Shown: positions 32,461-51,398, counted from the first letter of the stretch. The stretch: 64,000 bases of DNA from an uncultured Acidobacteriaceae bacterium (GCA_964622265.1 CAZUNI010000008.1:4424-68423), one strand, 5' to 3'. Notes: generated by a model from the letters alone, not told the origin. Translations and numbers: made by a program.

Positions 32461-32506
32461 TCTCATAACCCGAAGGTCGTTGGTTCAAATCCAACCCCCG
32501 CAACCA
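32461..32506 (+). repeat. tRNA-Met 3' half relic, copy B (left junction of the integrated element)
   Basis: tctcataacccgaaggtcgttggttcaaatccaacccccgcaacca. There is no 5' half upstream. The recombinase ORF on the opposite strand ends inside it. Confidence 0.85.
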
Positions 32507-34133
32507 TCCGAATGCGCCAGTCTGACGGCTGGCGCTCTCGGGCCACAACCGGGTCACTGCCGAGCAAGTTCCAGTTTCCTTCCGCCACATAGAAGCGATG
32601 CTCTGCGTTTTGGTACGGCGTCATCGTGATTTCGCTCGTGTGTTTCAAAAGTTCCGCCCTGGCAAGGGCGGAGTCCTTGCGCAGCAGTTCCCGAAGATTT
32701 CCCAAGCGGCTCGCCACGAAAGTCCGTATCTCGCCAATGCGTGCTTCAATCGATTCGGGGCTTGCTGATAGCAGGCGATCTGTGATCCCTTGCAACTCCG
32801 CTTCCTTCCGAGCAATCTCCGCGAGCAGAGCTTTCGAGTGTCCCGATTCCGCAATCGCTGCCGCCACGCGGCGTACTTCCATTTCCAGCCGTGCCTTTCG
32901 CTGACGCATCTCTGCAAGATCGCCAGACAAACTACCGAGCGCGATTCCAAGCTGTCTTTGAAACTCCACAATGGCGTGGTCCACAGCTTCTGGCCGCAAT
33001 ATTTCGCTTTGGAGTTTTCCGAGAAGCAAGTCTTCGAGATCATCGCGCCGGATATAGAGATCGTTTTCGCAGCCGCCGCGATTGAAACGCCGAGAGCACG
33101 CATACTTTGGATGTCGGTGCGTCCCGCCGCCAGTGGCGATTATCAGGTTCGCGCCACACTCGCCACACTTTAGAATCCCGCTGAATAGATACGGGCTCGT
33201 CATCGCGCGCGGCACCAGGCCGGGGGCTTTTTGGTTCTCCCATCCGGCAGCGAGCAACGCAAAACGCGAGCGGACCGCTTTCCAGAGACCCGGGCCGATG
33301 ATGGCTAAGTCGGGGTTGGTGCTGCGCAGCCACTCTGATTCAGGTCGAGGCCGGCGCTGGCGCTTATTTGTCCCTGGCACCTTCACGAATTTCGAGCGGT
33401 TCCAAATGACTCTGCCGACGTACAACTCGTTCCTCAGCATCTCGCGGATTGCAGTAGGACACCATTCCCCGCCTGTTCGATCCTTGCGTGCGCGGGGTGA
33501 TGGCACGCACTCCGCGTTCAGCGTCCTAGCGATTGCTTTCAAGGAACTGCCAGCCGCAGAGAGATTAAAGATTCGCTTCACGATGGCCGCTTCAGTCTTG
33601 TTCACGACCAGTTTTTTTCCGGTTCCTCCATCGGTCGGCACCGAGTCATAACCGAAGATTCGCCCGCCGGTATGTCTCCCGCTGAGTGCGCGGCCCTCAA
33701 GACCACGGTGAGTTTTCTTCGCTAGTTCGCGCACGTAGCTCGAATCCACAAGCCCATGAATGGTGAGGAGTGTTTCTGCCTGCTCGTGCTCGCTATCAAT
33801 GCCTTGACTGACGGCAATAAGCTGCACGCCGGAGAAGTTCAATCGCTTAAAAATTGTGAGGACGTCTTCCGTCGTGCGCGACAAGCGGCTCGTATCGTCA
33901 ACGAGGATCGCGGCAAATGGCGGAGCCGAAGCGAACGCGAGCGCGAGCATCCGCTTCAACGCGGGCCGGTCCGAGCCGACGCCACTCACCGCCTCGTCTG
34001 CGTAGATGTGCTCAGACAGAATTGCGAGACCGTGAGTTCCCGCGTATTGTCGGCATTTCCGAATCTGATCGTCAATGGAAGCGGGACTTTGGCGGTCGGT
34101 AGAATAGCGTGCGTAGATTGCGGTGTAGCCCAT
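32463..34133 (-). CDS. large serine recombinase (integrase)
   Basis: N-terminal resolvase catalytic domain AIYARYSTDRQ, a recombinase domain, the zinc-ribbon CGECGANL...YACSRRFNRGGC and a coiled coil. The last 16 codons (VAGVGFEPTTFGL) are antisense to the tRNA relic. Confidence 0.9.
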   Translation of the reverse strand: MGYTAIYARYSTDRQSPASIDDQIRKCRQYAGTHGLAILSEHIYADEAVSGVGSDRPALKRMLALAFASAPPFAAILVDDTSRLSRTTEDVLTIFKRLNFSGVQLIAVSQGIDSEHEQAETLLTIHGLVDSSYVRELAKKTHRGLEGRALSGRHTGGRIFGYDSVPTDGGTGKKLVVNKTEAAIVKRIFNLSAAGSSLKAIARTLNAECVPSPRARKDRTGGEWCPTAIREMLRNELYVGRVIWNRSKFVKVPGTNKRQRRPRPESEWLRSTNPDLAIIGPGLWKAVRSRFALLAAGWENQKAPGLVPRAMTSPYLFSGILKCGECGANLIIATGGGTHRHPKYACSRRFNRGGCENDLYIRRDDLEDLLLGKLQSEILRPEAVDHAIVEFQRQLGIALGSLSGDLAEMRQRKARLEMEVRRVAAAIAESGHSKALLAEIARKEAELQGITDRLLSASPESIEARIGEIRTFVASRLGNLRELLRKDSALARAELLKHTSEITMTPYQNAEHRFYVAEGNWNLLGSDPVVARERQPSDWRIRMVAGVGFEPTTFGL

Positions 34134-34877: not shown

Positions 34878-35840
34878 TCATATGCTCGCTGAAATGCCCT
34901 TTCGGTCCGACACTGGATAGGACGCTGATGCCTGAGTCCAGACCGAGCCGCGCCCGACTGCCTGTTCATCCACTACGAATCTCACAGCATGGCCAACTGC
35001 CTCAGCGATCTGACCCATATATTTTGAACGGAGATTGCGAGCGCACGTCTCGGTTATCGTCGCGAGAATGAGCGAACCGTCTGAAGAGAAGCCCAGAGGC
35101 ACGAGCGGTTGAATCCAGGTGGAGAAGTTGTGTGGGTTAATGTCCTGACGGAGTTGCGTCCGTGTGCGCGCCCAAGTCTCGCGCGCTTCAGCCTCGCGTT
35201 CGAGCGCCGGGAGGGATCGTGTCACTTGTGTATGAGCCCACGCTGCTGCGTCAATTGCTGAGTCAACTGCTGAGTCTTCTTTGCTGAGAACAATTGTGTC
35301 CCTTCTGGGAGGACCGTTGTGTCCGTTCTCAAAGATGGATTTGTCCCTTGTCTCATTCTCAGATGGGACATTTTTGTCCGATCTCTTGTCGCGCGACCAG
35401 ATTCCGAATTTTTGAGAATTAGTCACTGAGAGCACGAGACCGTAAGGGGTACGGCGAGCTAACAGGTAGTGATTCTTTACCAGACGCCGCAGATGCCGCT
35501 CCACCGTCTTCGCGCTCTCTTTTAGGTCACGGGCGATTTCTTCTGCCTTGACTGGCTTGCCTCCGAGTATCACTCCGACCATCCTTCCATTCTCTTCATT
35601 GTGCTCGCGCGTGATCTTGTCGAGACACCAAATGAATTCCCAGATCGCCGAGCCCATCCGCTTCCGGTGTTCGAGCAGGCCGCTCCACACGGGGATTGGG
35701 TATGATTTCCCGCAGCCGAAGCGCCTATCCTTCACCGGCCTGCCTTGCCAACGGTTGGCAGCGCCGACGCTTCTGGCTCCATTGCGGGCGGCGAGGTCGC
35801 AGAGTCGGTGGCGCATTCGGTTTCTTCGAGCGAGGTCCAT
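34878..35840 (-). CDS. winged-HTH protein with a C-terminal DnaA-N-terminal-like segment (putative element replication/regulatory protein)
   Basis: wHTH-like AEEIARDLKESAKTVERHLRRLVKNHYLLARR. C-terminal WARTRTQLRQDINPHNFSTWIQPLVPLGF...ILATITETCARNLRSKYMGQIAEAV resembles the DnaA N-terminal domain pattern. The start is uncertain because the long ORF overlaps the XRE gene by 109 nt. Confidence 0.45.
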   Translation of the reverse strand: MDLARRNRMRHRLCDLAARNGARSVGAANRWQGRPVKDRRFGCGKSYPIPVWSGLLEHRKRMGSAIWEFIWCLDKITREHNEENGRMVGVILGGKPVKAEEIARDLKESAKTVERHLRRLVKNHYLLARRTPYGLVLSVTNSQKFGIWSRDKRSDKNVPSENETRDKSIFENGHNGPPRRDTIVLSKEDSAVDSAIDAAAWAHTQVTRSLPALEREAEARETWARTRTQLRQDINPHNFSTWIQPLVPLGFSSDGSLILATITETCARNLRSKYMGQIAEAVGHAVRFVVDEQAVGRGSVWTQASASYPVSDRKGISASI

Positions 35841-38870: not shown

Positions 38871-39080
38871 ATGCAGACATACTCAACACGCGAGGTTGCA
38901 CAGAAGCTAGGAATTGATCGCGTGACGCTCCAGCGATATATCGCCAAGAAGTTGATTTCAGTTCCGGCGGTGAAGTCGCTTGGAGGCGGCCAATTCCGAG
39001 AGTGGACCGATCGCGATGTTGAACGGGTTCGCAAGCAATTGCCTAAGATCAGGGACGGCAGGAAAAAGAAAAAGGCGTAA
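38871..39080 (+). CDS. excisionase/MerR-superfamily HTH protein (Xis/AlpA-like)
   Basis: YSTREVAQKLGIDRVTLQRYIAKKLI...REWTDRDVERVRKQL. The start is set at the internal ATG at 38871. The track ORF begins at a TTG at 38832. Confidence 0.6.
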   Translation: MQTYSTREVAQKLGIDRVTLQRYIAKKLISVPAVKSLGGGQFREWTDRDVERVRKQLPKIRDGRKKKKA

Positions 39081-39151
39081 AGTAAGCGGGACGCGCCGGT
39101 GTATCGAGCACCGACACGCCCCTGACCACCATCACCTAACTGGAGGCAACG

Positions 39152-39760
39152 ATGGGTTCGAATAGTTTACCTCGCGTCGCAATCTACGCACGAGTTTCAA
39201 CCACAAACCACGGCCAGGATGTGACTTTACAGACGCGCGAGCTTGAGCAATTCGCCCAGGCGCGCGGCTGGCATTTGGTGGATTCCTACCTCGACCTTGG
39301 AATCAGCGGCAGCAAAGGCAAACGCCCGGAGCTTGATCGCCTCATGGCAGACGCGCACCGTCGCAAGTTCGATGTGGTAATCGTGTGGAAGTTTGATCGC
39401 TTTGCTAGATCGGTGTCGCATCTTCTCCGTGCGCTCGAAAACTTCAACGCGCTCGGTATCGCTTTCGTTAGCCTCAGCGAACAAATGGATACCACGACGC
39501 CGACTGGAAAGATGATATTTACCGTCCTAGGAGCCGTGGCCGAACTGGAACGCAGTCTGATCGTGGAACGTGTCCGGGCCGGTCTCAGAAACGCCCGCGC
39601 GAAGGGAAAGACGTTGGGCAGGCCGCGCAAGACAGTGGACACCGCAAGAATTGCCGCCCTACGCGCACAAGGGCTCTCCTTGCGTGCGATTGCCTCCGAG
39701 CTAAGGGTTGGACTTGCCACACTGCATCGCGCGTCTGTACCCTGTTCCAAAATTCGGTAA
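39152..39760 (+). CDS. small serine recombinase (resolvase/invertase family)
   Basis: RVAIYARVSTTNHGQD catalytic serine motif, a resolvase core and C-terminal HTH GLSLRAIASELRVGLATLHR. A ggagg SD lies upstream. Confidence 0.9.
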   Translation: MGSNSLPRVAIYARVSTTNHGQDVTLQTRELEQFAQARGWHLVDSYLDLGISGSKGKRPELDRLMADAHRRKFDVVIVWKFDRFARSVSHLLRALENFNALGIAFVSLSEQMDTTTPTGKMIFTVLGAVAELERSLIVERVRAGLRNARAKGKTLGRPRKTVDTARIAALRAQGLSLRAIASELRVGLATLHRASVPCSKIR

Positions 39761-39809: not shown

Positions 39810-42800
39810 TTACAAGAATGGCGTTTCTCGGGCGGAATCGGGCGCGGACGGTGGGAAATCTTTGAGCCGAAAAAGATCGGAGCGCCGTGACCACGTAATT
39901 TTAGACTCGGGCTCGTACTCATTCGTGGTCCTTTCCACATTCAACTGTACCCAGTATGTCCAGCCGTGCGTCGTTGCCAGAGACGTGAGCGTGTCAGCCG
40001 AAGCCTCGAGCAGGAAACCAGAAGAGCGTGGTTCATGGCGTCGCCGGCTTTGGTCGAAGGCTTCCTGCCAAGCCGTAGATCGTACGGCTGCCCGGCAATC
40101 GCGAGAATATCCCAGCCAATCTGCTTCATCGCTCTCAAGGCCGAGTTCACGGGCAAACTCTGGGCGGAGGGCCGCTATGTCGAGGTGATGGCGCCCTCGA
40201 AATGCTCGCGTGGAAGCCTGGACGAGTGGGACGATCGCAGGATTCAGCACCTCACGGCGGCCGGCCTCGACCCGCCGCAGCTCAAAACGATAGCGATTCC
40301 TGAATTCGATAGCGGCATCCCTCACGTTATCCGCACTGGGAATAACCTGGTCAACCAGGACTGCTACGACTAGCGCACGCACTCGCGTGGCGCGCCGGCG
40401 GAGCGGTCCGTGCTCGCCACCCGTGCGCTGCTCGGTATGTTCAAAAAGCGTGTACCACGCAGGATGGCGATCGAGGAATGCCCGCGCAAGGTGATCCCAG
40501 TCGTTGAAGGAAAGAAACTCGACGTCGCCGATATCGGTGTCAATCCACTTGATAAAGGGAGGGGGCGTCGTCAACTGAATCAGGGGCTCCGTCGGGTCCG
40601 ACACCCGGAGAAGGTCTGCGACATTGTTCGCAGTAACGTCATCCAGAATTTGTGCCTGGCGAAGCTCGTCCAGGACAACATTGATGCTTTCGCGGACGGT
40701 GCCGTCATAGGTACCGCTGATCTCTATCGGGTCGAAGTTGTCGTTGATGTTATAGCCTCGATGCGTGGCCATTTCCTCGGCAAATCCTTCCTCTCGGGAG
40801 GGATAACGCTCGGCGACTCGGGCGTGGATTAATCGGAGTAGGGGCTCTCTCGAGATAGACTTTGCGAGATGAGCCATCATCCATCTCGGATACGGCAGAA
40901 GAGGAATGGAACTGACGCCGAACAGCGGAGTGCGAAGCGGACGCGCCACTGCGGGAGATGCGCAAAGGCGACGCGCATCGTCGAGCAGCGTGGAGTTGAG
41001 TTGAGCTCCACGGTCATTCGTTGTAAGGATCGCTTCGGAGACAGTTCTCCTGAGATTGAAATGCGGCTCCTGGACTTTAAGCTTGAGAAGAGAATTTGCC
41101 CAGCTGTGGCTCGCCTCTGGTTTTGAGAGGCCGAAAGAGAAAAATAGGACTGCCAACAGCTCTTTCTGCGCTGCAGCAAACGTATCCCATTGCGCAAGCA
41201 ATGCATCAGGTGTTGTGACGCCCTCCGAAAGCAGACGAAGAAGCTCACCCACGGCCAGCAACCGCACGTCCACGACCGGGTACTTAAGAAGCCATAGAAC
41301 GTAACCTAGAATCTCGTCGGTCAGGGGTCTGTCGGCTGCATCCAAGAACCAATCGAGATTCAGCGGTGGGGCTGAGAGGCCCCTCACGAGATGTTCGTTG
41401 TATTCGGCCCAAAGATTGTAAATTTCATCGAAATCGACTCCACGAAAGTGATCGGCGAACCGAAGGATGCGATCGAGGCGCTGAACGATCAACCCTGGGA
41501 ATTGTTTGTGTTGGACAATGAATGCGTCCAGGAGAGTTTCGCAGCCGAGTTTCGGGTCCACCGACATGATCTCGGAAAGGATTGCGTTCGAGAGCTCTGT
41601 GTATTCAAAAAACAGAGTCGCGTGCGACCGCCAGGCCTCCTGAAGTAGTGCCTTAGCACGCTCCGGATCGAGCGGACGAATGCGCCGAGCAATGGCGAGA
41701 AGCCCCCATGCTTTGCATGAATCACTAAATCTCGTGCGGCAGAGTTCGATCCACGAGTCGAGATCACTCATCCGAGCCGCGGCGATCCAATCGGGCAGCA
41801 ATTTTTCGAGATCGTATTGATAAGGCACGCGGGACGTGAAAACTAAGGGGAGCCGCTCAAGCCAACTCTCCATGTCTAACGAATTTGAAAGGTGTTCGGC
41901 GAGTTGTGGCGGCTCGAACTTCTCTGCGATCGCTTTGATCATGTCGCTCATGGCGAGCCGAATGGCAGCTTTGGTTTGAATCCGATCGGATGGCGTCAGG
42001 CCCGCGACTCGGTTCTGGGTCGCTTTCAGTGCGGGAGCAACGTTGGTTCGTTCGTCGGTGGTCAGCTCGCGACCGAGAGCTGCAGAGACGATTTCAAGCA
42101 AATCAGGGAGCACTCGCTCGATCTCGTTTTGCCATCTCTCCGTCATCTGCCGTCGGGCGAGCTGATTCAATACTTCTTGGAGTTCGGAGACACCTTTTTC
42201 GGCGGCAGCCGTAAAGATGGCCGGATCACCCGAGAAAGAGCGAGAAGGTTGCGTTTCTTTTGAATCTTCCTTTGGAGCATCACTCGCGTGGGATTGGATG
42301 TCGCCTTGTACGTAAGCTGGGGCATCGCCAATCTCAATCCACAATCGAGCCCACTTAGCTAGTTCTTGCGGAGCCCCCTTTTCTACCAGGAAGACGTGCT
42401 TCGCATCTCGATAAATTGTTTCTGCGGCTACAAAGTCCTTGCGCCGAAGAGCTGCCTCGAATATCGCTTCTCTCATGGGCAATACATGATCGCGATATTC
42501 TGAATAATCATCCCAGCGTGCTGCCGTCGAGGCGAGTGCCCATAACCAAGTAAGCGGCACGTCCGCAGAGTTGATCCATTTCAGCACCAAAGAATGGAGC
42601 GCCCTCTCTCGATAGATCGAGTCCTCAAGGTGAGCGAGCATTTTGAGAGGAAGTCCGGGTGAAATGTGCCGCGCGAACACGATCAGGTCTTCGATAGCAA
42701 CTGCCGAGGTCTTTGCGCGTGCAGCATCTCCAAGCCGGTGAGCGAGATTAAGCTGGTCTGCAATTCGTTGACGGGTCGCAGTTGGATTCCGGTCATGTGC

Positions 42801-45800
42801 AAAGCGGAGGGGCGATAAGATCTCATTGAATTGATAGTCCTTCCGGTAGTTCACACCGCACGCTAGATCAAGCAACTCTCTCCACAAACGATCAGCTTCC
42901 GGGTTGAAGCCACACATCCCCCACGCTGTGGCTGTGGCAAGAATTTCGGAAGCCAAGACCGAGGTTTCCTCATCGGATCGGGCGGCGCGTTCGACAATGG
43001 AAAGCAATGAGCGTATAAGTTCTTTGGCGGCGGCTTTGAGACGCATAGCTAGACAAGCGGCAAAGTCTTTCGTTGCTCCTGAGTTGTTGACGGCTCGGCG
43101 TCCTTCGTTCGACTCTGCCCACCACTCACCGAGAGCTTGGAGATCATCTTCCTTGAGGATCCTTGCTGCTACATTCCACACAATGGCGAAAAGACGTGGC
43201 GACTCCTGCCGATAGAGACTCCTTGCAAGAAAATTCGAATGGCCCAACCCATCAAAGGCATGCGAACGAAGGTCAAGCTCTGAAAGAATGCCTTCGAGCC
43301 GCGGGAGCGCGTTAAGCGGTTTCCATCCCCCGCGCACCCAATCGGTCCAAACAAGCGCCAACTCCCCAAGTGCACTGATCACGGGATGGATTGGCTCGGG
43401 TAAGCCGGTTACGACCGATTCGAACCAAGCTTTCGCTTCCTTGTTGGAGAGAAAATAGAAACGAAAACGGTCGTATATGGTGAAAAGTTCTGGTTCGAGT
43501 TGGTTGTAAAGCTGATCCCTAAGGAATCCTTTTGGGAGAACAGGTGCTGTGGCGTCGGTATACCAAACTGTGTCCCACATGCCAGAGTCAGCCAGATCTA
43601 GCAACATCGTTCGGCGTTCAGATTCGGGTATGCTCGCGAAATTCACTGAACTAGCTGCGGTTCGGGCTTCCGCCATCTCACCAACGCGGACCAAAAGCAG
43701 CGCGCGCGCGACGCGAGCAAATTGAGCCACTTCGTTTGATGGAGTGCCGCCACCGGCCACGATCCGATCTAGCTCGGGGAGATTCTTGCTGTTACAGAGC
43801 TCCCGAATTACGGCGAATTGCAATGCGAGGTTCGTTGCCTGTCGATCGGGATCGGAAACCTGTTTCCTAGTGAACTTGTGTTCAGGCCGAATGGTCCACG
43901 AGAGCTTTGAGATTTCCTCGAGTATTTCGACCGCGGACTGAACATAGGTCGAGGCACGATAGTAGCTGGCAAGATCTATCGAGGACGCCTCAACGGGCCG
44001 GTCGGTAAGGACCGTTTTGATGATCGACAGTGGCGGGGGGCTACCGAACCGCTCGCGGTAGTGGAGGCAAAATTCTGCAAAGGCTACGGGCCCGCAGTGA
44101 GCTCTTTCACCGTCCCAGACAGTCCTGATCGCCTCAGCGTCGAGACCAGTATCGACAAGAAACCGCGCGATTTGTTCGGGTTTCAGATCAAGATGGTGCT
44201 CAACCAGTGCGAGGCGCTGCTTGATCAGCGCCAGTCGCAAAAAAGAAGCGAGATCTTGGGTTATCGAAGCAGCTTGCCAAGCTAAATCGATGTTTTGATG
44301 GATTTCGGAGACAGGACGGTGGGCCGTCCAACTGCTGACGAACCAATCGTAGGTCAGTTGCTGCTTCAGCTCCTCATACTTGCCGAGCTGAAAAAGGTGC
44401 CTGAAACGGTGGCGCCACGCCTCATCCCTGTCGGGGTGCGCCGCGTACCAATCGACTAGAGTTTCGTTGATCGCTGTAGTGAGAGCTTGGGTCTGTTCCA
44501 GCACAAACTCGCGAAAGCTGTTGTGGCGAATGGCGACACCGCGGCCCTCGGAGTTCCGCAATACGTGAGCAGTCGTACGTAGGGCTTGCTCAACGGAGAG
44601 CAGATTCGCGGGCACATGGAGCCGCTCCAGTAACTCTGCCATATCCGCCGGCGTCGTGAATTCATGACGAATCGCCAAAATGGCAAGTGCGTATATCGCT
44701 GTTTGGTCGTCCTCAAGACTTCTCCAGAGATGACGATGATATGCGTCAATCGTTTCGCTGCTGAGGGATGGCTGATGTTTCAACAATTCTTCCCGTTCAT
44801 AATCGCTCAGCGCAGCCAGCCTCATTCCGAGATACTCCAGGTAAATGGGCACTCCTCCAGAAACTTCCTGCGCCAACACAAGAAGCTCGGGCTCGAGATC
44901 CACTCCACGGCGAGCGAGGAATTCCTTGACTTGGGCCTGCACAAAGCGAGGAACCTTGATGTGTCGCAGCTGATCGCTCGCAATATGGTCCCGGACCGAA
45001 CGCGGCAGCGCTGCTAGGTATTGAGAACTCAGAACCATCAACACGTTGTCAGGCGGCAAATGATCGAGCACCGAAGTCAAAGGCTCCCTGATCATGTGTT
45101 GGGCGTACTTGGCATGCACATGGTCCAAGCCGTCAATTAGGAAAACGACACGCTCGTCCCGCTCCGAAACGTAACGGAGCCAACTATTGAGGAGCTCGAG
45201 CGAAAACTCCCCATACGGCTGCGGAAATTCGAGATCGGGGAACGCTTTCGACAAGCCAATGCACATCGATCTCACGAAGGCGGCCTGCTCGAGACGATAG
45301 TTGCCAAGTGAGGGGTCACTGGGTACATGGCAGCGATAGGCAAATGTCACGTCGTCCGGCCTTTGCATTGCGTACTCCGCGAGCAAGGTCGATTTCCCAA
45401 TGCCAGGCTCCCCTTCGAGCAGGATAAATCCACTATTGAGCTTGCTCAGAGATTCATCGAGGGCTTGAAACACTATGGGTGTAGGAACCCATTGCTCTTG
45501 AACTACCGGAAAAATGTGGTCGACTGGATCTATGAAATGGGTGGCGAGCCCCAAGGCGTCGAGGACATTGCTGACCTTCACGTTGGCACTGTCGATCGAC
45601 CACTTGACGACCTGGTTGAGTAACGTCCCGTATTGGACCTGTGCAATACCCAGACGGGTAAGCTTGGCTCGAACGCTGTTTTCTCGCGAGATGAGGTCCG
45701 GTTGGCCTAGGCGGAAGCGTAGGTGGCGCAGGAATGTGTTGAATTCCTCGAAAGTTGCGAGACCGGATGCTTGCAACAGCTGATTCACAATCTCTTTGTA

Positions 45801-46271
45801 CTCGGGGAATCGAGGGTTCTCGCGAATATCTGCAGAAGGCAGACCTTTCGTCAAGGGCTCTTGTACGTCCGAAATAAATTCTTCGAGACTTCGGGGAAAG
45901 CCTTTCGCGGGTTGTCGGTTCGAGCCGGCCTTCCGCGTCGAAAGAAGAACTATCTCTTTTGATCCGGGTTCGCCGCTTACCCTGCTGAATCCTGAAGCAA
46001 GCTTGGCTATGAGCGCCACCTCGGAGGACTCATCCGCCGTAACAAGATTGTGAAGGGTCAATGTTGCTGAATCGTCGTTCGCCCACTTGACTTGGACGAA
46101 GACCGTCCCACCGTCGCGCTCCACAATGATGTCGTCAACGAACTTGGCACGTTCGGCACTTTCCAGTGACACCGACTTCACGGAGGTGCCGATCTCAAGC
46201 AACTCAAGAACGTAGCCCGCTGCGACAACATTCTGGTAGTAAAATCCCGCCTGTGCGTCTGAGCCTGCCAT
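39810..46271 (-). CDS. giant NLR-like (NACHT/STAND) NTPase with an N-terminal Cap4/Mrr-type PD-(D/E)xK nuclease domain
   Basis: N-terminus GFYYQNVVAAGYVLELL...VDDIIVERDGGTVFVQVKW (DUF4297/Cap4-like D...QxK). Walker A LLEGEPGIGKSTLL and NACHT-like Walker B VVFLIDGLDHV. About 1700 further residues are uncharacterised. The uninterrupted ORF runs to 46391, and I prefer the internal ATG at 46271 (MAGSDAQAGFYYQ). Confidence 0.8.
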   Translation of the reverse strand: MAGSDAQAGFYYQNVVAAGYVLELLEIGTSVKSVSLESAERAKFVDDIIVERDGGTVFVQVKWANDDSATLTLHNLVTADESSEVALIAKLASGFSRVSGEPGSKEIVLLSTRKAGSNRQPAKGFPRSLEEFISDVQEPLTKGLPSADIRENPRFPEYKEIVNQLLQASGLATFEEFNTFLRHLRFRLGQPDLISRENSVRAKLTRLGIAQVQYGTLLNQVVKWSIDSANVKVSNVLDALGLATHFIDPVDHIFPVVQEQWVPTPIVFQALDESLSKLNSGFILLEGEPGIGKSTLLAEYAMQRPDDVTFAYRCHVPSDPSLGNYRLEQAAFVRSMCIGLSKAFPDLEFPQPYGEFSLELLNSWLRYVSERDERVVFLIDGLDHVHAKYAQHMIREPLTSVLDHLPPDNVLMVLSSQYLAALPRSVRDHIASDQLRHIKVPRFVQAQVKEFLARRGVDLEPELLVLAQEVSGGVPIYLEYLGMRLAALSDYEREELLKHQPSLSSETIDAYHRHLWRSLEDDQTAIYALAILAIRHEFTTPADMAELLERLHVPANLLSVEQALRTTAHVLRNSEGRGVAIRHNSFREFVLEQTQALTTAINETLVDWYAAHPDRDEAWRHRFRHLFQLGKYEELKQQLTYDWFVSSWTAHRPVSEIHQNIDLAWQAASITQDLASFLRLALIKQRLALVEHHLDLKPEQIARFLVDTGLDAEAIRTVWDGERAHCGPVAFAEFCLHYRERFGSPPPLSIIKTVLTDRPVEASSIDLASYYRASTYVQSAVEILEEISKLSWTIRPEHKFTRKQVSDPDRQATNLALQFAVIRELCNSKNLPELDRIVAGGGTPSNEVAQFARVARALLLVRVGEMAEARTAASSVNFASIPESERRTMLLDLADSGMWDTVWYTDATAPVLPKGFLRDQLYNQLEPELFTIYDRFRFYFLSNKEAKAWFESVVTGLPEPIHPVISALGELALVWTDWVRGGWKPLNALPRLEGILSELDLRSHAFDGLGHSNFLARSLYRQESPRLFAIVWNVAARILKEDDLQALGEWWAESNEGRRAVNNSGATKDFAACLAMRLKAAAKELIRSLLSIVERAARSDEETSVLASEILATATAWGMCGFNPEADRLWRELLDLACGVNYRKDYQFNEILSPLRFAHDRNPTATRQRIADQLNLAHRLGDAARAKTSAVAIEDLIVFARHISPGLPLKMLAHLEDSIYRERALHSLVLKWINSADVPLTWLWALASTAARWDDYSEYRDHVLPMREAIFEAALRRKDFVAAETIYRDAKHVFLVEKGAPQELAKWARLWIEIGDAPAYVQGDIQSHASDAPKEDSKETQPSRSFSGDPAIFTAAAEKGVSELQEVLNQLARRQMTERWQNEIERVLPDLLEIVSAALGRELTTDERTNVAPALKATQNRVAGLTPSDRIQTKAAIRLAMSDMIKAIAEKFEPPQLAEHLSNSLDMESWLERLPLVFTSRVPYQYDLEKLLPDWIAAARMSDLDSWIELCRTRFSDSCKAWGLLAIARRIRPLDPERAKALLQEAWRSHATLFFEYTELSNAILSEIMSVDPKLGCETLLDAFIVQHKQFPGLIVQRLDRILRFADHFRGVDFDEIYNLWAEYNEHLVRGLSAPPLNLDWFLDAADRPLTDEILGYVLWLLKYPVVDVRLLAVGELLRLLSEGVTTPDALLAQWDTFAAAQKELLAVLFFSFGLSKPEASHSWANSLLKLKVQEPHFNLRRTVSEAILTTNDRGAQLNSTLLDDARRLCASPAVARPLRTPLFGVSSIPLLPYPRWMMAHLAKSISREPLLRLIHARVAERYPSREEGFAEEMATHRGYNINDNFDPIEISGTYDGTVRESINVVLDELRQAQILDDVTANNVADLLRVSDPTEPLIQLTTPPPFIKWIDTDIGDVEFLSFNDWDHLARAFLDRHPAWYTLFEHTEQRTGGEHGPLRRRATRVRALVVAVLVDQVIPSADNVRDAAIEFRNRYRFELRRVEAGRREVLNPAIVPLVQASTRAFRGRHHLDIAALRPEFARELGLESDEADWLGYSRDCRAAVRSTAWQEAFDQSRRRHEPRSSGFLLEASADTLTSLATTHGWTYWVQLNVERTTNEYEPESKITWSRRSDLFRLKDFPPSAPDSARETPFL

Positions 46272-46732
46272 CGGAGTATCACCCAGTAACTGAACGAAGA
46301 TTCTAATGCAATTTGGGATAGGATGAGCGGCCAAGTGGACCGGTCGAGTTCTTGCCCACGCAAATTGGATCACAACGATAGCGAGTGGCATCTCAGAACG
46401 AGGAACAGATTGGAAACAGAAAACATTTCTCGGGAAATTCCTGGATCACCCGTGAAACACTACATCGCAGTTCAACGAAATCCCCCTGAAGTCCTAGGTA
46501 GGTGGCCTTTTGCCAGTGTTCCGAAAACCCCTCCGAGCGGTTACCCGTAAGCCTTTGAATCTATACGGTAGGAAATCGGCGGTTAAGGTGTTCCGGAAAC
46601 ACTTGATTTTGAAGTGTTGGTGCCGAGCTGCAGGGCGCATCGGGATCGCCCGACGGAGCAGGACTCATATTTGAGTCTATTAAAAGTTTTTCGAACCTTG
46701 ACCGAGAAAAGCCAGATGCCGTACGGCAGCGG

Positions 46733-47476
46733 TCAGCGCTCGCGATCTTTCACCCTTGCAACTGCCATGGCATGCGCTAGGAGCGATGAAAAAAAAGTCT
46801 CGAAGCTCAGCTCTGGCGACGGTTCTCTGTAATACCCTGTCACCCCTCGTCTGGCGTCCGAAAGAAGAAAACAGGCCGAATCGTAAAGGCGTTCGCGCAC
46901 GAGTTTGGTCAGCAAAATTTCGTAACGCTTCGCATAAGACGAGGCCTTGAACTCGGCGAACACTTTGAAGTGTGGCTCCTTGGCTCGTACAGACCGCATC
47001 GATCCAGGTGCCTCTTCTAGAAGCATCATGTACCCTAGCCATGGACGGGCCGATGGCTTGAACGCGCCTTCTCGATACGCCGCCCAGATGTCGGTGGCGC
47101 TCCCGATCGCTTCTTCTGTGCGATTGTTGTAGTTGTTTCCGAAGGATCCAACTTGGGATTTGAATTCAATTCCGGCCAGCAACTTGCCATCAGCGACCAC
47201 GAGCAAATCCCACCTCTTCTCCGGTCGGTACCACCCCGGAAGTTCGATCCGCTTTTCGCAATACACATGTGCTCTTGGCAAGCCGTTTTCGCACAGGTGG
47301 TCGCGGACCATCGAAACGAATCCATCCATCTGTCGACCGCCGGTTACGGCTGTTCGGGAACCCGCATCGCGTGATCCCGTCTTCGTACCTTGTTTTTCGG
47401 ATTGAGACTCGCGTGTCTTCCAAAAATGCTGCACGGCCCCGCGAAGGCGTTCCTCAATCTTCGAGTGTAAAGCCAT
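46733..47476 (-). CDS. type II restriction endonuclease (PD-(D/E)xK; possibly PaeR7I-like family)
   Basis: WDLLVVADGKLLAGIEFKSQ gives D...E-x-K. It lies 4 nt downstream of the methyltransferase stop. The family name is from memory only and is not verified. Confidence 0.6.
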   Translation of the reverse strand: MALHSKIEERLRGAVQHFWKTRESQSEKQGTKTGSRDAGSRTAVTGGRQMDGFVSMVRDHLCENGLPRAHVYCEKRIELPGWYRPEKRWDLLVVADGKLLAGIEFKSQVGSFGNNYNNRTEEAIGSATDIWAAYREGAFKPSARPWLGYMMLLEEAPGSMRSVRAKEPHFKVFAEFKASSYAKRYEILLTKLVRERLYDSACFLLSDARRGVTGYYREPSPELSFETFFSSLLAHAMAVARVKDRER

Positions 47477-47480
47477 TGTT

Positions 47481-48521
47481 TTATTCGCCCGGACTCGAGT
47501 GGATTTCCGCCAAACTGAACAGTGAAGATGTTTCGCATTCGAGTCGATTCAACGCCAACTCATAATAGTGGCGGTCAATTTCAAAACCGATGCTGTTCCG
47601 TCCCCATTTCGCAGCCGCCACTGCCGTTGTTGCCGTTCCCATGAACGGATCGAGAATAGTGTCGCCTACGAAACTGAACATCCTAATCAGGCGCTCGGCC
47701 AGTTCCGAAGGGTACGGGGCCGGATGTTGCCGCGTCGAAGCACCCGTGACTCCAGACCAAATTTGCTGGAACCACTTTTTGTGGTTCTCTGCCGAGAGAA
47801 GGCTCAGCACTTTCTTCGAAATGTCGGGGGCCCTGTAACCTCCGGGTTTCCTCTCCATCAAGATAAACTCAATGTCATTCTTGATTACTCCGTTGGGTTC
47901 GTAAGGCTTTCCCAGAAAGCTTGAGCCGTTTTCGACCTCGTGTGCGGCATTTGAAATTTTGTACCAGATGATGGGTGCCAAGTTGTCATAACCGAGCTTT
48001 CGGCAGTGTTCCTGAATCGAAGCGTGTAAAGGCACAACGGTGTGCCTTCCTCCGTTTTCACGACGCGACAGGCACACGTCGCCAACGACAACGATCAAAC
48101 GCCCGCCTGGAACCAGGACCCTGAAGCAGTGGGCCCAAACCTTGTCGAGCTCGCCGAGGAACTCATCGTAATCCTCGATGTGACCGAGCTGACCGTCGGA
48201 ATCCCTATATTCTTTGAGCGTCCAATAAGGAGGAGAGGTGAGCACCAAGTGAACGCTCTCAGCCGGAACCGCATCTAGAACTCTGCCATCTCCGCGGTTG
48301 AGCCGGTGACGGGTTGGAACGCTCCGAACCGCCCGCTCGATTTCGAGAACGGCTTTCGGATCCTTGGCAAGCCGCGGGATTGCCGTCTGTGGATTGTCTA
48401 GCTCTACGAATCGCTTCGGGACGTAAACGGACAAGTCCCGTTCCGGCCCATCGGACTTTGCGGCCTCTCGCTTTGTCTTTGTCCCAAGCATCATCCCTCT
48501 ATTTCCCAAGCTATCGGCCAC
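47481..48521 (-). CDS. beta-class N4-cytosine/N6-adenine DNA methyltransferase
   Basis: Motif IV LVLTSPPYW precedes motif I VGDTILDPFMGTATTAVAA, which is the beta permutation. SPPY favours N4-cytosine specificity. Confidence 0.85.
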   Translation of the reverse strand: MADSLGNRGMMLGTKTKREAAKSDGPERDLSVYVPKRFVELDNPQTAIPRLAKDPKAVLEIERAVRSVPTRHRLNRGDGRVLDAVPAESVHLVLTSPPYWTLKEYRDSDGQLGHIEDYDEFLGELDKVWAHCFRVLVPGGRLIVVVGDVCLSRRENGGRHTVVPLHASIQEHCRKLGYDNLAPIIWYKISNAAHEVENGSSFLGKPYEPNGVIKNDIEFILMERKPGGYRAPDISKKVLSLLSAENHKKWFQQIWSGVTGASTRQHPAPYPSELAERLIRMFSFVGDTILDPFMGTATTAVAAAKWGRNSIGFEIDRHYYELALNRLECETSSLFSLAEIHSSPGE

Positions 48522-48602: not shown

Positions 48603-49952
48603 TTAACCAAGCGAAATGGTTCTACCCTGTGATTCGAGTGAGCTCATCAATTGCATGTGAGCGCGCCAACCGTCGCCCTCCGGATCCGCTTCGACTCGCA
48701 GCAGCCGATCGCCGCTTGGAGCATATCGCAACAACTGTTCACGGATGCCCGATCGCCCCAGAATCCAACATACGGTTCGGTGACGCGATAGCATCACGCA
48801 AAGACGGCCGGCGTCCAAATGAAACTCGGATGCATCGGCGCGCCCGGAGAGCGGATGGTGGACAAGCGTAATTTCCCGCTCGAGGCCCTGGAATCGGTCA
48901 GCCGTCTCGACCAGCACATCCGATAGATCGCTGGGAAGACGTTCACGCACGGCATTTACCTGTGAAACGTGTGCGCAAACAATGCCAATCATCGCGGGCG
49001 TAACCTGCCGTGAGGCATCTCCTTCTCTGATTCGCGCGGACCTTTCGAGCACGCGAACGGTCATTTCCACGAGTACCGTAGCCAATTCCTCGTCCACTTC
49101 ACCAACTATTCTTGCAGGAAGCCCGATGAAGGAAAGGCTCGCGCCGCCTTCGGCCGCGTCCAACGCTTGATCGGTTCTCTTCCGCCCCGAGATCGGGGTT
49201 GCAACAGCAAGCGTACGTGCGCCGCTTGGTGAGAGGGCCGCAAAATTCAAATCTGGATAGAAGGCAGGCTGAACAAAATTAACTGTGTCTTGCACGAGTC
49301 TTCTAGAAACGGGCAGGCTAAGGCGCTCAACTCCGCATAGACGCTTCACCAGCGAGACTGGACACGGAACGTGCGGGCCAGCGGGATCACACCGCCATCT
49401 TTCGATTTCACACCCAATGACGGGGGCGATTTGTCCTGGGTCGCCAACAAGTACGAATCGTCTCGCGAGGCAGGCGATCAGGTGAAACCGATAATCTGGC
49501 AACTGAAAAGCCTCATCGACGATCTGCAGATCGAAAGTTTGCTCATGGTGTTGAATCCACGACCACTTCCAAGCGTTCGCGATCACAACGCAGGGGCCCG
49601 CCGGAAGTTCATCGAACTGGTCGATCACCACAAGATTCTGGATCTGGGTCAATGAAGGAGGAAGCGTCAGGTCCCTCCGCGTGAGCAGATAGAAGGTATG
49701 TCGTGGGAATCCGCACGATAGTCGTCGCGCTAGATCGAAAGCTTGCTCGTTCGTCTGGGTGGCAATCATGCATCGCTCGCGCAGCAGCGCAAGCGATTGC
49801 ACAGCGAGACGCTCCACAATATCAGTTTTTCCTGCACCTGGAGGTGAGTCTAGACGAACGGCGGGAATGCCCGCCCACTGCGTTTCGAGAACTCGGCGCA
49901 CGGCTGCATCCGCCAATTCCTGTGGTGCCGTCGCAATTGTTGTTACGCTCAT
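48603..49952 (-). CDS. SF1 helicase-like P-loop ATPase (gene D of the four-gene operon)
   Basis: Walker A DSPPGAGKT, Walker B IVDEAFQLP, and motifs LVGDPGQIAPV, TADRFQGLERE and VMLSRHR. Confidence 0.8.
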   Translation of the reverse strand: MSVTTIATAPQELADAAVRRVLETQWAGIPAVRLDSPPGAGKTDIVERLAVQSLALLRERCMIATQTNEQAFDLARRLSCGFPRHTFYLLTRRDLTLPPSLTQIQNLVVIDQFDELPAGPCVVIANAWKWSWIQHHEQTFDLQIVDEAFQLPDYRFHLIACLARRFVLVGDPGQIAPVIGCEIERWRCDPAGPHVPCPVSLVKRLCGVERLSLPVSRRLVQDTVNFVQPAFYPDLNFAALSPSGARTLAVATPISGRKRTDQALDAAEGGASLSFIGLPARIVGEVDEELATVLVEMTVRVLERSARIREGDASRQVTPAMIGIVCAHVSQVNAVRERLPSDLSDVLVETADRFQGLEREITLVHHPLSGRADASEFHLDAGRLCVMLSRHRTVCWILGRSGIREQLLRYAPSGDRLLRVEADPEGDGWRAHMQLMSSLESQGRTISLG

Positions 49953-51397
49953 CGCAGGCCTTCAACGGCCGCGAGCAAATCAGCGGGCTTCGGGGTGCCC
50001 GTGGGTGAAGCGTCCGGGACCTGTCCGTTCTGGTGCGTCCAAACGGGTTGAGCAAGGCGGTCCCGCATCTGCTTTCGCAGCCGGATAATGCGATTCCAAT
50101 CAGGAGGAGAGGAGCCTAGCGACACCTCCTGGTCCGGCACAGGCAGCCCGACGGAACGCTTGCCCTGTAGCATTAAGACGGAAACCCGCTTGATTTGCCC
50201 GTTGCGGCGAACGTCCGTTATAACCACCTTCATTCGAGGATCGGCCAACAGATATAGCTCATCCCTCCGTCGGACGTGCAGCATTCTCTGCTCGGTCACG
50301 ACAGTGAACCGGCACTCAAACCGACGTGGAGATAAACGTGTTCTTACTGGATTTTCAACGATTCCGCACAAAATCCTCCCCGCCAACCGCTCGCGCTCAA
50401 AGTGGACCTTGTCGCCATAGAGCAACGCAGCGCGCGCGCCATCTGCGGCGTCCTCGCGGGAAGCCAAACGGAATGCCGCCGACTTCGGGCTGTCGCGCAG
50501 TGGCAACGCATGACCGAGCTCTCTCGATGTCATAAAAGAACGAAATTCATCCGCCTCTCGGGCTTCCAAACCGTCGAGATGCACAATTGGATCGAGTTGC
50601 TCTTGGATCAAAAGTGAGATCGCATCTTGTGTAGCTTCGTAGATTCGTAGGACCACTGGACGCAACACCGCTTCGATTCGCGAGGCCCGCGTCGCAAGTT
50701 CAGCGCTGGTAGCCTTTCTCTTTCGGGCCCCGTTGTATCGTGACACAAGCGGATCGAGCTCGTTGCGATCGAAATCCGGATCGGTCTTTACGCTCATCGG
50801 TAAATCTTCCGCAGCGGCGACGGCGGCCAAAACGTTTCGACCCGCAGGAGGGCGCATCCAGACAAGCAATGCACCCAAATGCTCATCTTCCGCTTCCTGC
50901 TGACCCGTAGCGAAATGCATCCTGAGTGCGCCGGTTGCCGTCACTAGAGCTTGCTGCCCTTCAACCGGAAAGCGTTCGGTGGCATAAGAAAGCAGTTCGC
51001 CGAAACGCTTCACGCGGAGATTTTCGCGATTGAACCGCAAACGGTCACCGAGTGTGTCCAGCAATCCCACCGCACCGGAGGATGGTAGCCAAATCTGCGG
51101 GTACGTTCCGTCCTGCTGACACTCTTCAAAATATCGCTCCACGCGTTCTCCGAGCCATTCAAAGAGATCATATTGGTCGTCCCGATAACGTGGATCCGGA
51201 ACACATCGAATGTCTGCTGGCTGGCCAAGGTGCCCGCACGCCACGATGTGGATCGTTGTGTCTTCTCCAGCCATCGCGATTGGGCAGATCACGAGTGCGT
51301 CTGGGCGGATTGCGATCCGCTGGTTGGATGCAATGCGGACAGCGCGTCCTTCTCGGAACGCCAGTAGCCTCGACACGACATTTAAAATATCGAGCAT
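49949..51397 (-). CDS. hypothetical protein (gene C of the four-gene operon)
   Basis: Uninterrupted ORF. The preferred ATG at 51397 lies 1 nt after the gene B stop (TGAGATG), and its stop overlaps the gene D start (ATGA). I recognise no motif. Confidence 0.55.
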   Translation of the reverse strand: MLDILNVVSRLLAFREGRAVRIASNQRIAIRPDALVICPIAMAGEDTTIHIVACGHLGQPADIRCVPDPRYRDDQYDLFEWLGERVERYFEECQQDGTYPQIWLPSSGAVGLLDTLGDRLRFNRENLRVKRFGELLSYATERFPVEGQQALVTATGALRMHFATGQQEAEDEHLGALLVWMRPPAGRNVLAAVAAAEDLPMSVKTDPDFDRNELDPLVSRYNGARKRKATSAELATRASRIEAVLRPVVLRIYEATQDAISLLIQEQLDPIVHLDGLEAREADEFRSFMTSRELGHALPLRDSPKSAAFRLASREDAADGARAALLYGDKVHFERERLAGRILCGIVENPVRTRLSPRRFECRFTVVTEQRMLHVRRRDELYLLADPRMKVVITDVRRNGQIKRVSVLMLQGKRSVGLPVPDQEVSLGSSPPDWNRIIRLRKQMRDRLAQPVWTHQNGQVPDASPTGTPKPADLLAAVEGLR

Positions 51398-51398
51398 C

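Follow-up and report, generated by a model that had tools for sequence, protein, structure and literature searches.

A rare giant nuclease-STAND protein of an uncultured Acidobacteriaceae bacterium with a predicted sensor fold like that of SeAvs3

[quoted passage not shown] The large terminase is sensed by Avs1-3, of which Avs1 is predicted to resemble Avs3 very closely in structure, and the beta-rich C-terminal sensor common to Avs2 and Avs3 binds the ATPase domain of terminase (PMC13601566). In SeAvs3 from Salmonella enterica, whose complex with the PhiV-1 large terminase is available as PDB 8DGC, terminase binding leads to tetramerisation and to activation of the nuclease (PMC13601566, PMC11564622), and the ATP bound to the terminase is read by ATP-contact residues, Y1714 and the H1770 loop (bioRxiv 10.64898/2026.08.25.746987). 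Specificity can shift or widen among related Avs sensors, and KpAvs2 senses Ksap1/2 too (PMC11564622). The Cap4 PD-(D/E)xK effector, activated by oligomerisation, is also that of SeAvs7 and of CBASS Cap4 (PMC13581612).

The window analysed here is a stretch of 64,000 nucleotides from an uncultured Acidobacteriaceae bacterium (GCA_964622265.1, CAZUNI010000008.1:4424-68423), in which an earlier note, made from the sequence alone, had pointed to a giant NLR-like protein encoded by a single uninterrupted ORF. The gene is indeed intact, and its features and neighbours are listed in Table 1. The longest ORF at the locus (39810..46391, minus strand) would encode 2,193 aa, and in the translation coordinate 46271 corresponds to an internal Met of 'MAGSDAQAGFYYQ', from which 2,153 aa and a stop codon follow. 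Since the N-termini of 50 homologues open with M-x-G-S-x-AQAGFYYQ in the family alignment, the true start is likely at 46271; the public (JGI) gene call, at 2,193 aa, is probably 40 codons in excess, and the corresponding extension is probably untranslated. An identical protein is borne by 17 metagenome contigs, with the same gene neighbourhood at the four loci shown, from four different samples, and full-length homologues, grouped in about 120 clusters and 24-74% identical, keep a near-constant length of 2,116-2,194 aa; because of these identical copies and homologues, the giant gene is not a chance ORF. All of the motifs quoted previously could be located: GFYYQ (residues 9-13), VDDIIVE (45-51) and FVQVKW (58-63) at the N-terminus, both Walker motifs, and WTYWVQLNVERTTNEYEPESKITW at residues 2104-2127. 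The tail (residues 596-2153) has the composition ascribed to it, with 12.5% Leu, 11.6% Ala, 8.9% Arg and 7.6% Glu.

Table 1. Features of the giant gene, of its surroundings in the window and of its sister family
Feature	Position	Strand	Evidence or remarks
Large serine recombinase, island edge	32463..34133	-	Pfam Resolvase + Recombinase + Zn_ribbon_recom
Small serine resolvase/invertase, convergent with giant gene	39152..39760	+	Pfam Resolvase E 9e-49
Giant STAND protein, complete CDS	39810..46271	-	2,153 aa; stop codon 39810-39812; ORF list and translation
Beta-rich C-terminal domain, residues 1935-2140	39852..40469	-	Long beta-strands in model; invariant residues
Solenoid sensor, about 1,300 residues, all-alpha, TPR/HEAT-like, residues 596-1900	40572..44486	-	AlphaFold2, conservation, Foldseek
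Extended loop motif H-R-x-[YH]-N-I-N-x-N-[FY]-D-x-I-E-I, residues 1835-1851	40719..40769	-	Family alignments
Helical and winged-helix domains, residues 445-595	44487..44939	-	Secondary structure of N-half model; invariance
STAND/NACHT-like nucleotide-binding domain, residues 265-440	44952..45479	-	Pfam, PADLOC, invariance, fold
Walker B, residues 377-385	45117-45143	-	FLIDGLDHV
Walker A, residues 287-295	45387-45413	-	GEPGIGKST
Cap4-type PD-(D/E)xK nuclease effector, N-terminal, residues 1-245	45537..46271	-	Pfam, PADLOC, profiles, invariance, alpha/beta model fold
In-frame upstream extension in public gene call, 40 codons	46272..46391	-	Homologues start at Met of 46271
XhoI-type type II restriction endonuclease, directly upstream of giant gene with methyltransferase	46733-47476	-	Pfam XhoI E 7e-78; PADLOC REase_II
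N6/N4 DNA methyltransferase, upstream	47481-48521	-	Pfam N6_N4_Mtase E 7e-39; PADLOC MTase_II
Cap4-STAND sister family, about 2,048 aa			Nitrosococcus halophilus pNHAL01 WP_013028141; Klebsiella WP_064323944; Vibrio, E. coli, Providencia, Pseudomonas

The N-terminal head is recognised by Pfam Cap4_nuclease just past the threshold (27.0 bits against a GA of 26.2) and by the nuclease parts of the PADLOC LmuA and SAVED_PDDEXK models, and the superfamily profile finds 8zue_A (E 6.5e-5) and Cap4 7yib (E 1.4e-3) in the PDB, in agreement with the Cap4-type nuclease proposed earlier. In the family alignment Q7, Q13, N14, D46, D47, Q60 and K62 are invariant, and D46/D47...Q60-x-K62 is kept in all 51 family members and throughout the superfamily; the AlphaFold2 model of the N-half gives the head an alpha/beta fold. 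A CBASS Cap4 effector was discarded as an identity for the whole protein: the SAVED_PDDEXK models matched only at the nuclease (profile positions 13-124 of 483), and the remainder is NTPase and solenoid.

The NACHT-like NTPase in the centre of the protein, also anticipated from the sequence, is matched by Pfam NACHT (PF05729) at 39.2 bits against a GA of 26.7, and precomputed PF05729 matches are present in most homologues. The residues G287, G290, G292, K293 and S294 of Walker A and D380, G381 and D383 of Walker B (pattern applied: hhhhDG[LF]D[EH]) are invariant in the 51 family members and in the superfamily, so that, at the level of sequence, the NTPase is assigned to the NACHT-like STAND kind. 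H583 and S585 of 'HNSFREF' are likewise invariant in family and superfamily, and by analogy with other STANDs H583 may sense the nucleotide, as the MHD His does in NLRs. In Foldseek searches the best match of the N-half model was 8dgc, the SeAvs3 structure (E 3e-17), and further matches were the STAND protein 6mfv, plant NLRs, Cdc6/ORC and Cap4 structures.

The long tail had been described as uncharacterised, whereas its predicted fold specifically matches the SeAvs3 sensor, including a beta-rich C-terminal domain as in Avs2 and Avs3. AlphaFold2 was run without templates on the two halves of the protein (pLDDT 86.3 and 87.8), and the C-half (residues 1001-2153) matched 8dgc_A with E 4.3e-11, prob 1.0 and TMq 0.50 over 1,223 columns and 8dgc_B with E 3.1e-10, prob 1.0 and TMq 0.53; the next match in the PDB stood at E 0.014 and TM 0.1. 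The match spans essentially the whole sensor half of 1,153 residues, C-terminal domain included, at a Foldseek identity of only 12%. In published clustering, sensors are grouped when Foldseek coverage reaches 80%, E does not exceed 1e-10 and TM is 0.40 or higher (PMC13581612); 8dgc_A falls within these limits, with query boundaries that differ from those of that paper, and 8dgc_B is narrowly over the E cut-off. At the sequence level, SeAvs3 (8dgc) was found neither by phmmer nor by the family, C-terminal-domain and broad superfamily profiles, nor with members of the sister family. Judged from the models, the sensor arm is specifically SeAvs3-like in its predicted fold, which agrees with the C-terminal sensor that had been expected from the class.

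Along the solenoid, for which the superfamily profile search gave a weak HEAT-like match to 2db0, the landmarks are a conserved patch at 1121-1160 (RKDYQF), a variable disordered loop at 1333-1347 and the invariant H1737. The extended loop motif, which served as a search pattern, is strongly conserved, with N1843 and E1850 invariant, and is modelled as a loop. D1892, W2068, G2085 and R2114, in the C-terminal domain and the linker preceding it, are invariant in the superfamily. As modelled, the beta-rich domain is likely the 'C-terminal sensor'; an exhaustive profile search found it only in the family of the giant protein and in remote Cap4-STANDs that are about 2,030-2,060 aa long. H1737, Y/H1840, the N1843/E1850 loop and D1892 are candidates, at the level of a guess, for counterparts of the ATP-reading residues of SeAvs3.

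SeAvs3, likewise a single-protein system, has the identical order of parts (Cap4 nuclease, STAND NTPase, alpha-solenoid, beta-rich C-terminal domain); its chain has 2,028 residues, about 125 fewer than the 2,153 aa found here, its identity of about 12% escapes phmmer and profile HMMs, and its host range is different. With this chain and the sister family of about 2,048 aa at hand, the sensor is not unusually long for this group, contrary to the earlier note. The sister family aligns with the family profile over nearly the full length, C-terminal domain included (hhalign Prob 100, E 2e-51, 1,862 columns), has an equal partial match to the Avs1b NTPase and holds the invariant residues in common, but differs in being only about 16-18% identical, about 100 residues shorter and far more abundant (478 hits); its members carry no annotation beyond 'ATP-binding', 'NACHT domain-containing' or 'hypothetical' protein.

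Avs1b (PADLOC PDLC02159) is by far the best-scoring PADLOC match (81 bits; residues 269-718, which make up the NTPase-WHD module). No other STAND-family model appears in the PADLOC results, the further matches being nuclease-domain models and weak partial ones. The Avs1b match covers only model positions ~211-658 of ~1,924-1,931, leaving the sensor part (~700-1924) unmatched, and the Avs1b model of NCBIfam (NF041810) reaches 63.9 bits against an equivalog cut-off of 1,500 bits. Furthermore, Avs1b has an N-terminal protease where the protein here has a Cap4 nuclease, and the Avs1a and Avs1c partner genes were not found as conserved neighbours at 30 loci; the score, the NTPase-limited match, the Cap4 head and these missing partners rule out an Avs1b equivalog. 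Avs2 (EcAvs2, VcAvs2-trypsin) is a terminase-sensing STAND with TPRs and a beta-rich C-terminal sensor or CTD (PMC13601566; bioRxiv 10.64898/2026.08.25.746987), but it is shorter (about 1,460 aa in the trypsin form), differs in TPR architecture and in its effectors, and gave no Foldseek or HMM match to the protein. Avs7 differs in that its TPR sensor is bilobed and recognises the major capsid protein, and in its use of EF-Tu; CBASS Cap4 responds to cyclic nucleotides by way of a SAVED domain, which the giant protein does not have.

The restriction-modification pair and the two serine recombinases, the larger of which adjoins the housekeeping VIT1 and P-type ATPase genes, bear out the suggestion that the gene sits in a mobile element. 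A conserved neighbour was sought in 30 homologue loci and none was found, pointing to a solitary gene; tyrosine integrases flank the homologues in 8 of these loci, and in six other genomes Gabija-like OLD+UvrD, GmrSD, AbiEi/Eii, RelE/MqsA, other STANDs, integrases and IS elements lie nearby, the defence and mobile-element surroundings being a qualitative observation. The family is rare and sporadic, occurring in about 35-40 of 185,579 species genomes (~0.02%) from several, mostly environmental, phyla, with Acidobacteriota, Bacteroidota and other environmental bacteria as hosts. All three parts of the Avs architecture, a death effector, a STAND NTPase (NBD-HD-WHD) and a C-terminal sensor of at least 400 aa, are present, and the NTP-binding and effector catalytic residues are intact; a nuclease head, a STAND NTPase and a sensor in a mobile defence context are the Avs architecture. 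Of the undescribed clade that had been suspected, it holds that the full protein is recognised by no curated PADLOC or NCBIfam model, but the protein stays within the described Avs1/Avs3-like architecture, and the 2026 census, with its 589 STAND clades, would very probably have taken in the family as well (PMC13581612).

A single-protein system of the Avs1/Avs3 type, in which terminase triggers oligomerisation, release of the Cap4 nuclease and abortive infection, is the reading that we hold to be probable. The same architecture and nuclease output could also rest on an Avs3-like scaffold retargeted to other conserved phage or mobile-element proteins (another ASCE ATPase or nuclease, the portal, the capsid) or to several triggers. 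Such retargeting is possible, if somewhat doubtful: the low identity leaves SeAvs3 without a sequence-level link, the phages of the environmental phyla that mostly host the family are poorly known, and most core phage proteins are within reach of Avs families that differ in their sensors, some of these sensors having multiple triggers (PMC13581612, PMC11564622); yet the SeAvs3 match over nearly all of the sensor half is unique in the PDB, and Avs1, Avs2 and Avs3, which all share the scaffold or the C-terminal sensor, sense terminase (PMC13601566).

It is unlikely, in our judgement, that the C-terminal alpha/beta domain is a second catalytic or ligand-binding domain, whether one that senses nucleotides or small molecules or, as in Upx, a further nuclease, with activation or killing unlike those of SeAvs3. 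No enzyme family was matched in Pfam, PADLOC, NCBIfam or PDB sequences, and the polar residues that could suggest it, D1892, W2068 and R2114 across two families (domain and linker) and N1843, E1850, R1889, N1992 and R2077 within the family, would be expected just as much of a surface that, as in SeAvs3, recognises bound ATP or an active site that does not vary; on the other side, the conservation score of the domain equals that of the NTPase, short stand-alone or split versions occur, and Upx, also a terminase sensor, bears a C-terminal PD-(D/E)xK nuclease (PMC13601566). A regulatory or housekeeping signalling ATPase lying in the island by chance is very improbable, even though many STAND clades are non-defence and interspersed among defence clades (PMC13581612), given the fusion of the NTPase to an invariant nuclease active site, the sporadic occurrence, the always variable surroundings with integrase, toxin-antitoxin or defence genes and the fold match to a proven antiviral sensor.

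The computed basis of the terminase-triggered reading consists of the domains present, catalytic and NTP-binding residues that are intact, a fold match specific to SeAvs3 and a gene that stands alone in mobile defence surroundings; what we infer beyond it concerns which trigger is sensed, which oligomer forms, and that DNA is degraded and the infection aborted. In the uninfected cell the protein would be an autoinhibited monomer. Upon infection, the alpha-solenoid and the beta-rich C-terminal domain would close around a conserved protein of the phage, the large terminase subunit being the likeliest, and this binding would free the NTPase module to bind ATP and form an oligomer (a tetramer in SeAvs3), gathering the Cap4 PD-(D/E)xK domains into an active nuclease that would cut double-stranded DNA indiscriminately and abort the infection. 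On the strength of the predicted structures, the giant gene belongs to a known kind of antiviral sensor, as a rare environmental relative, and is not a new type of system.

The giant gene on the minus strand encodes a protein of 2,153 aa (the window protein) that is very probably a defence nuclease of the antiviral STAND (Avs) type. The longest minus-strand ORF listed for the window at this place, 39810-46391, is uninterrupted and would give 2,193 aa, while the 39810-46271 model starts at the internal methionine of MAGSDAQAGFYYQ and its translation gives 2,153 aa. Since the aligned N-termini of 50 homologues begin at M-x-G-S-x-AQAGFYYQ, 46271 is the probable true start of the gene. A public JGI gene call of 2,193 aa begins 40 codons upstream of this homologue-supported start (46272-46391), and is probably an over-extended annotation. 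This is a real gene under selection: the identical protein occurs on 17 metagenome contigs, with an identical gene neighbourhood at the 4 displayed places, from 4 different samples, and its full-length homologues form about 120 clusters of 24-74% identity in which the length is nearly constant (2,116-2,194 aa) and indels are hardly seen. Every motif quoted in the earlier note was found in the translation at its described relative position, and the tail does show the described abundance of Leu, Ala, Arg and Glu.

The same note had proposed a Cap4-type nuclease joined to a NACHT-like NTPase in an Avs-type architecture, and this core interpretation proved right, with both Pfam domains above their gathering scores: at residues 2-119 Cap4_nuclease reaches 27.0 bits, only marginally more than the 26.2 required, and at residues 283-454 NACHT reaches 39.2 bits vs 26.7. 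The head is also matched by the nuclease parts of the LmuA, HamA and SAVED-PDDEXK effector models of PADLOC, and a broad superfamily profile searched against the PDB retrieved 8zue, ‘Anti-bacteriophage protein A’ (E 6.5e-5), and the CBASS Cap4 7yib (E 1.4e-3). In 51 members of the 2,153-aa family (the window protein and its full-length homologues, numbered as in the former) and in the wider superfamily, the PD-(D/E)xK residues D46, D47, Q60 and K62, the Walker A G287-x-P-G-x-G-K293-S294, the Walker B D380-G-x-D383 and the winged-helix His583 in ‘HNSFREF’ are invariant. Avs1b was by a wide margin the top PADLOC match and the sole STAND-family model among the matches, covering the NTPase-WHD part alone (residues 269-718; 81 bits); the NCBIfam Avs1b model, limited to the same part, scored 64 bits vs an equivalog cut-off of 1,500. 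The curated HMMs of PADLOC and NCBIfam do not class the protein as an Avs1b equivalog or as any other named AVAST type.

Residues 720-2153 have no match in the Pfam, PADLOC, NCBIfam or PDB sequence libraries. Both halves of the protein were considered as AlphaFold2 models, built without templates from alignments of 36 family members, with a mean pLDDT of 87.8 for the N-half (1-1100) and of 86.3, with a pTM of 0.77, for the C-half (1001-2153), whose predicted features are collected in the table.

Features of the predicted C-terminal half of the window protein (AlphaFold2 model of residues 1001-2153)
Feature	Residues	Remark
All-alpha solenoid	to ~1890	
Variable disordered loop	1333-1347	sole such loop in the solenoid
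Conserved extended loop HRx[YH]NINxNFDxIEI	1835-1851	after the solenoid
Compact beta-rich domain	~1935-2140	

A Foldseek search of the PDB with the C-half gave one specific match, chains A and B of 8dgc, ‘Avs3 bound to phage PhiV-1 terminase’ (E 4.3e-11 and 3.1e-10, probability 1.0, TM 0.50-0.53 over about 1,220 columns), the runner-up being a karyopherin (E 0.014, TM 0.10). The best match of the N-half was also 8dgc (E 3.4e-17); generic STAND, plant NLR, Cdc6/ORC and Cap4 structures came next. The AlphaFold2 weights are older than the release of 8dgc, so memorisation is an unlikely source of this match. The description of the tail as uncharacterised is weakened accordingly, its predicted fold specifically matching that of Salmonella enterica Avs3 (SeAvs3). 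Among viral structures in BFVD, an unnamed 670-aa protein, A0A2H4PQT3, partially matched the modelled sensor fold (E 1.9e-6, target-normalised TM 0.42), and no other gave a comparable match; it may represent a decoy or a sensor fragment carried by a phage.

Phage large terminase is the target sensed by Avs1, Avs2 and Avs3 (PMC13601566), and its binding induces tetramerisation of SeAvs3, which activates the Cap4 nuclease and leads to dsDNA degradation (PMC13601566, PMC11564622). The long TPR of SeAvs3 forms a dual cavity that holds the ATPase and nuclease domains of the terminase, and Y1714 and the H1770 loop touch the terminase-bound ATP (bioRxiv 10.64898/2026.08.25.746987). The window protein appears to combine traits of these systems: its NTPase is closest by sequence to Avs1, whereas its modelled sensor fold and whole-protein architecture are closest to Avs3, and its C-terminal domain is predicted to be beta-rich, as has been described for terminase sensors. 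Unlike Avs1, it lacks both the protease and the partner genes. No SeAvs3 match was obtained in the PDB sequence library, taken to contain 8dgc, with the protein itself or with the family, C-terminal-domain or broad superfamily profiles, nor with sister-family members from Nitrosococcus, Salmonella and Klebsiella; because sequence searches never reached SeAvs3, the link to Avs3 is one of predicted structure only. A 2,021-aa Cap4-STAND on a Salmonella IncHI2 plasmid (locus L008) was considered as SeAvs3 itself and rejected, since it has no PDB sequence match and aligns with the 2,153-aa family over residues 52-911 only. Placing the equivalents of SeAvs3 Y1714 and H1770 by their distance from the C-terminus is numerology, and was discarded as evidence.

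The family is rare. An exhaustive HMMER search of 1.84 billion representatives with the C-terminal-domain profile returned only 121 proteins, and 185,579 species genomes contained 52 loci, about 35-40 of them full-length, in Acidobacteriota (the closest, 55%), Pseudomonas, Nevskia, many Bacteroidota, Ignavibacteria and Spirochaetes. No relative was encoded in 50,697 phage records; plasmids carried no full-length member, the matches there being confined to the N-terminal part (Cap4 plus NTPase) and belonging to other STANDs; Pfam gave no match for the short, stand-alone proteins related to the C-terminal domain. The remote matches of the exhaustive search were other Cap4-STANDs of 2,029-2,058 aa, with stronger partial Avs1b matches. 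A 2,064-aa protein of a Nitrosococcus plasmid aligned with the family profile over nearly its full length (hhalign E 2e-51, 1,862 columns), and the sister family of about 2,048 aa to which it belongs is much larger (478 hits, in Vibrio, Klebsiella, E. coli, Providencia, Pseudomonas and others). The length of its members, like that of the SeAvs3 chain (2,028 residues), weakens the view that the tail is unusually long. D1892, W2068, G2085 and R2114 are invariant in both families. Although abundant, the sister family is called by neither PADLOC nor NCBIfam and is annotated in RefSeq only as hypothetical, ATP-binding or NACHT; no paper was found under the accessions of either family. On the 66-kb Nitrosococcus halophilus plasmid pNHAL01, the sister Cap4-STAND lies one small gene from an annotated Dsr1 anti-phage sirtuin. 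Another locus (L013:3379-9524) has a 1,540-aa ORF whose stop overlaps the start of a 507-aa protein, P0211, together 2,047 aa; their island also carries a serine recombinase and a methyltransferase. The C-terminal part of P0211 is distantly related to the C-terminal domain of the 2,153-aa family. From its sequence the pair looks like the same architecture split in two, reminiscent of the ‘split-TPR variant of Avs1’ (PMC13601566).

The mobile-element setting beside a restriction-modification pair was confirmed: an XhoI-type R-M pair lies upstream of the giant gene and a small resolvase downstream, and a large serine recombinase beside housekeeping genes marks the island edge. Neighbours vary in 6 other genomes (Gabija-like OLD+UvrD, GmrSD, another STAND, AbiEi/Eii, RelE/MqsA, integrases and IS elements), clustering of the flanking ORFs of 30 loci gave no conserved partner gene, and the biggest shared cluster consisted of tyrosine integrases (8 of the 30); the giant gene thus stands alone, is horizontally mobile and belongs to defence islands. 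A scan of the surroundings of the island for att-like direct repeats gave chance-level matches only, as expected for recombinases of the serine type; promoter and terminator scans stayed at background level.

Other genes of the island deserve mention. A homologue of the XhoI-type REase (46733-47476) adjoins the giant gene also in an unrelated uncultured Ilyomonas sp. MAG, which may mean that the STAND gene and an R-M system of this type are occasionally transferred together. Four co-directional minus-strand genes that abut or overlap (48603-53359; 286, 367, about 482-517 and 449 aa) lie upstream of the R-M pair and may form an undescribed defence operon of the same island; in the 449-aa product an SF1-helicase C-terminal module (AAA_11/AAA_12) is the sole domain recognised, beside weak partial MkoA/MkoC/DpdJ and PLuB helicase-like matches, and Pfam, PADLOC, PHROG and NCBIfam recognise nothing in the other three. 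A DnaD-like helicase-loader/DnaA_N-domain gene (34878-35840; phrog_7498) and a 69-aa HTH_17/MerR-type gene adjoining the resolvase (39080-39150 region), present in the JGI calls of the identical contig, suggest that the element is integrative and encodes a module for its own replication and excision.

The best-supported reading is that of a single-gene Avs1/Avs3-type antiviral STAND, in which the solenoid and the C-terminal domain would capture a conserved protein of the phage, the large terminase being the likeliest candidate; capture would drive ATP-dependent oligomerisation, and the oligomer would degrade DNA through Cap4, resulting in abortive infection. That the trigger is the large terminase we hold to be somewhat probable. 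The same scaffold may have been retargeted to another phage protein: in this alternative, which we judge doubtful, the Avs3-like scaffold suggested by the models would read, through its C-terminal domain and loop (N1843, E1850, D1892, W2068 and R2114 invariant), another conserved phage or mobile-element ATPase or nuclease, or a bound nucleotide, and would represent a new trigger specificity inside the Avs1/3 structural group. Much less probably, the conservation of the C-terminal domain might reflect a catalytic or ligand-binding role. A non-defence function is unlikely.

The 2026 literature already lists 90 or more structurally distinct Avs families, besides a census of 589 STAND clades and 684 sensor clusters (PMC13581612), and against this the 2,153-aa family is a rare, uncharacterised addition to an already described Avs kind rather than a new kind. 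The proposal of an undescribed clade stands insofar as no curated PADLOC or NCBIfam model calls the full protein, and is weakened by the Avs1/Avs3-type architecture, which has already been described. Nor does the window protein open up a new mechanism, because its architecture and logic are established for Avs1-4 and Avs7-21. Each of the two families could be given its own detection model, and the invariant sensor residues are mutagenesis targets for studying how extremely diverged sensors would still recognise the same phage fold. To our knowledge, the phage-defence biology of Acidobacteriota and Bacteroidota is almost unexplored. If the preferred Avs1/Avs3-type reading is true, terminase-type recognition by giant Cap4-STANDs would reach far past Enterobacteriaceae, into soil and aquatic Acidobacteriota, Bacteroidota, Ignavibacteria and others, via a family uncalled by PADLOC and NCBIfam.
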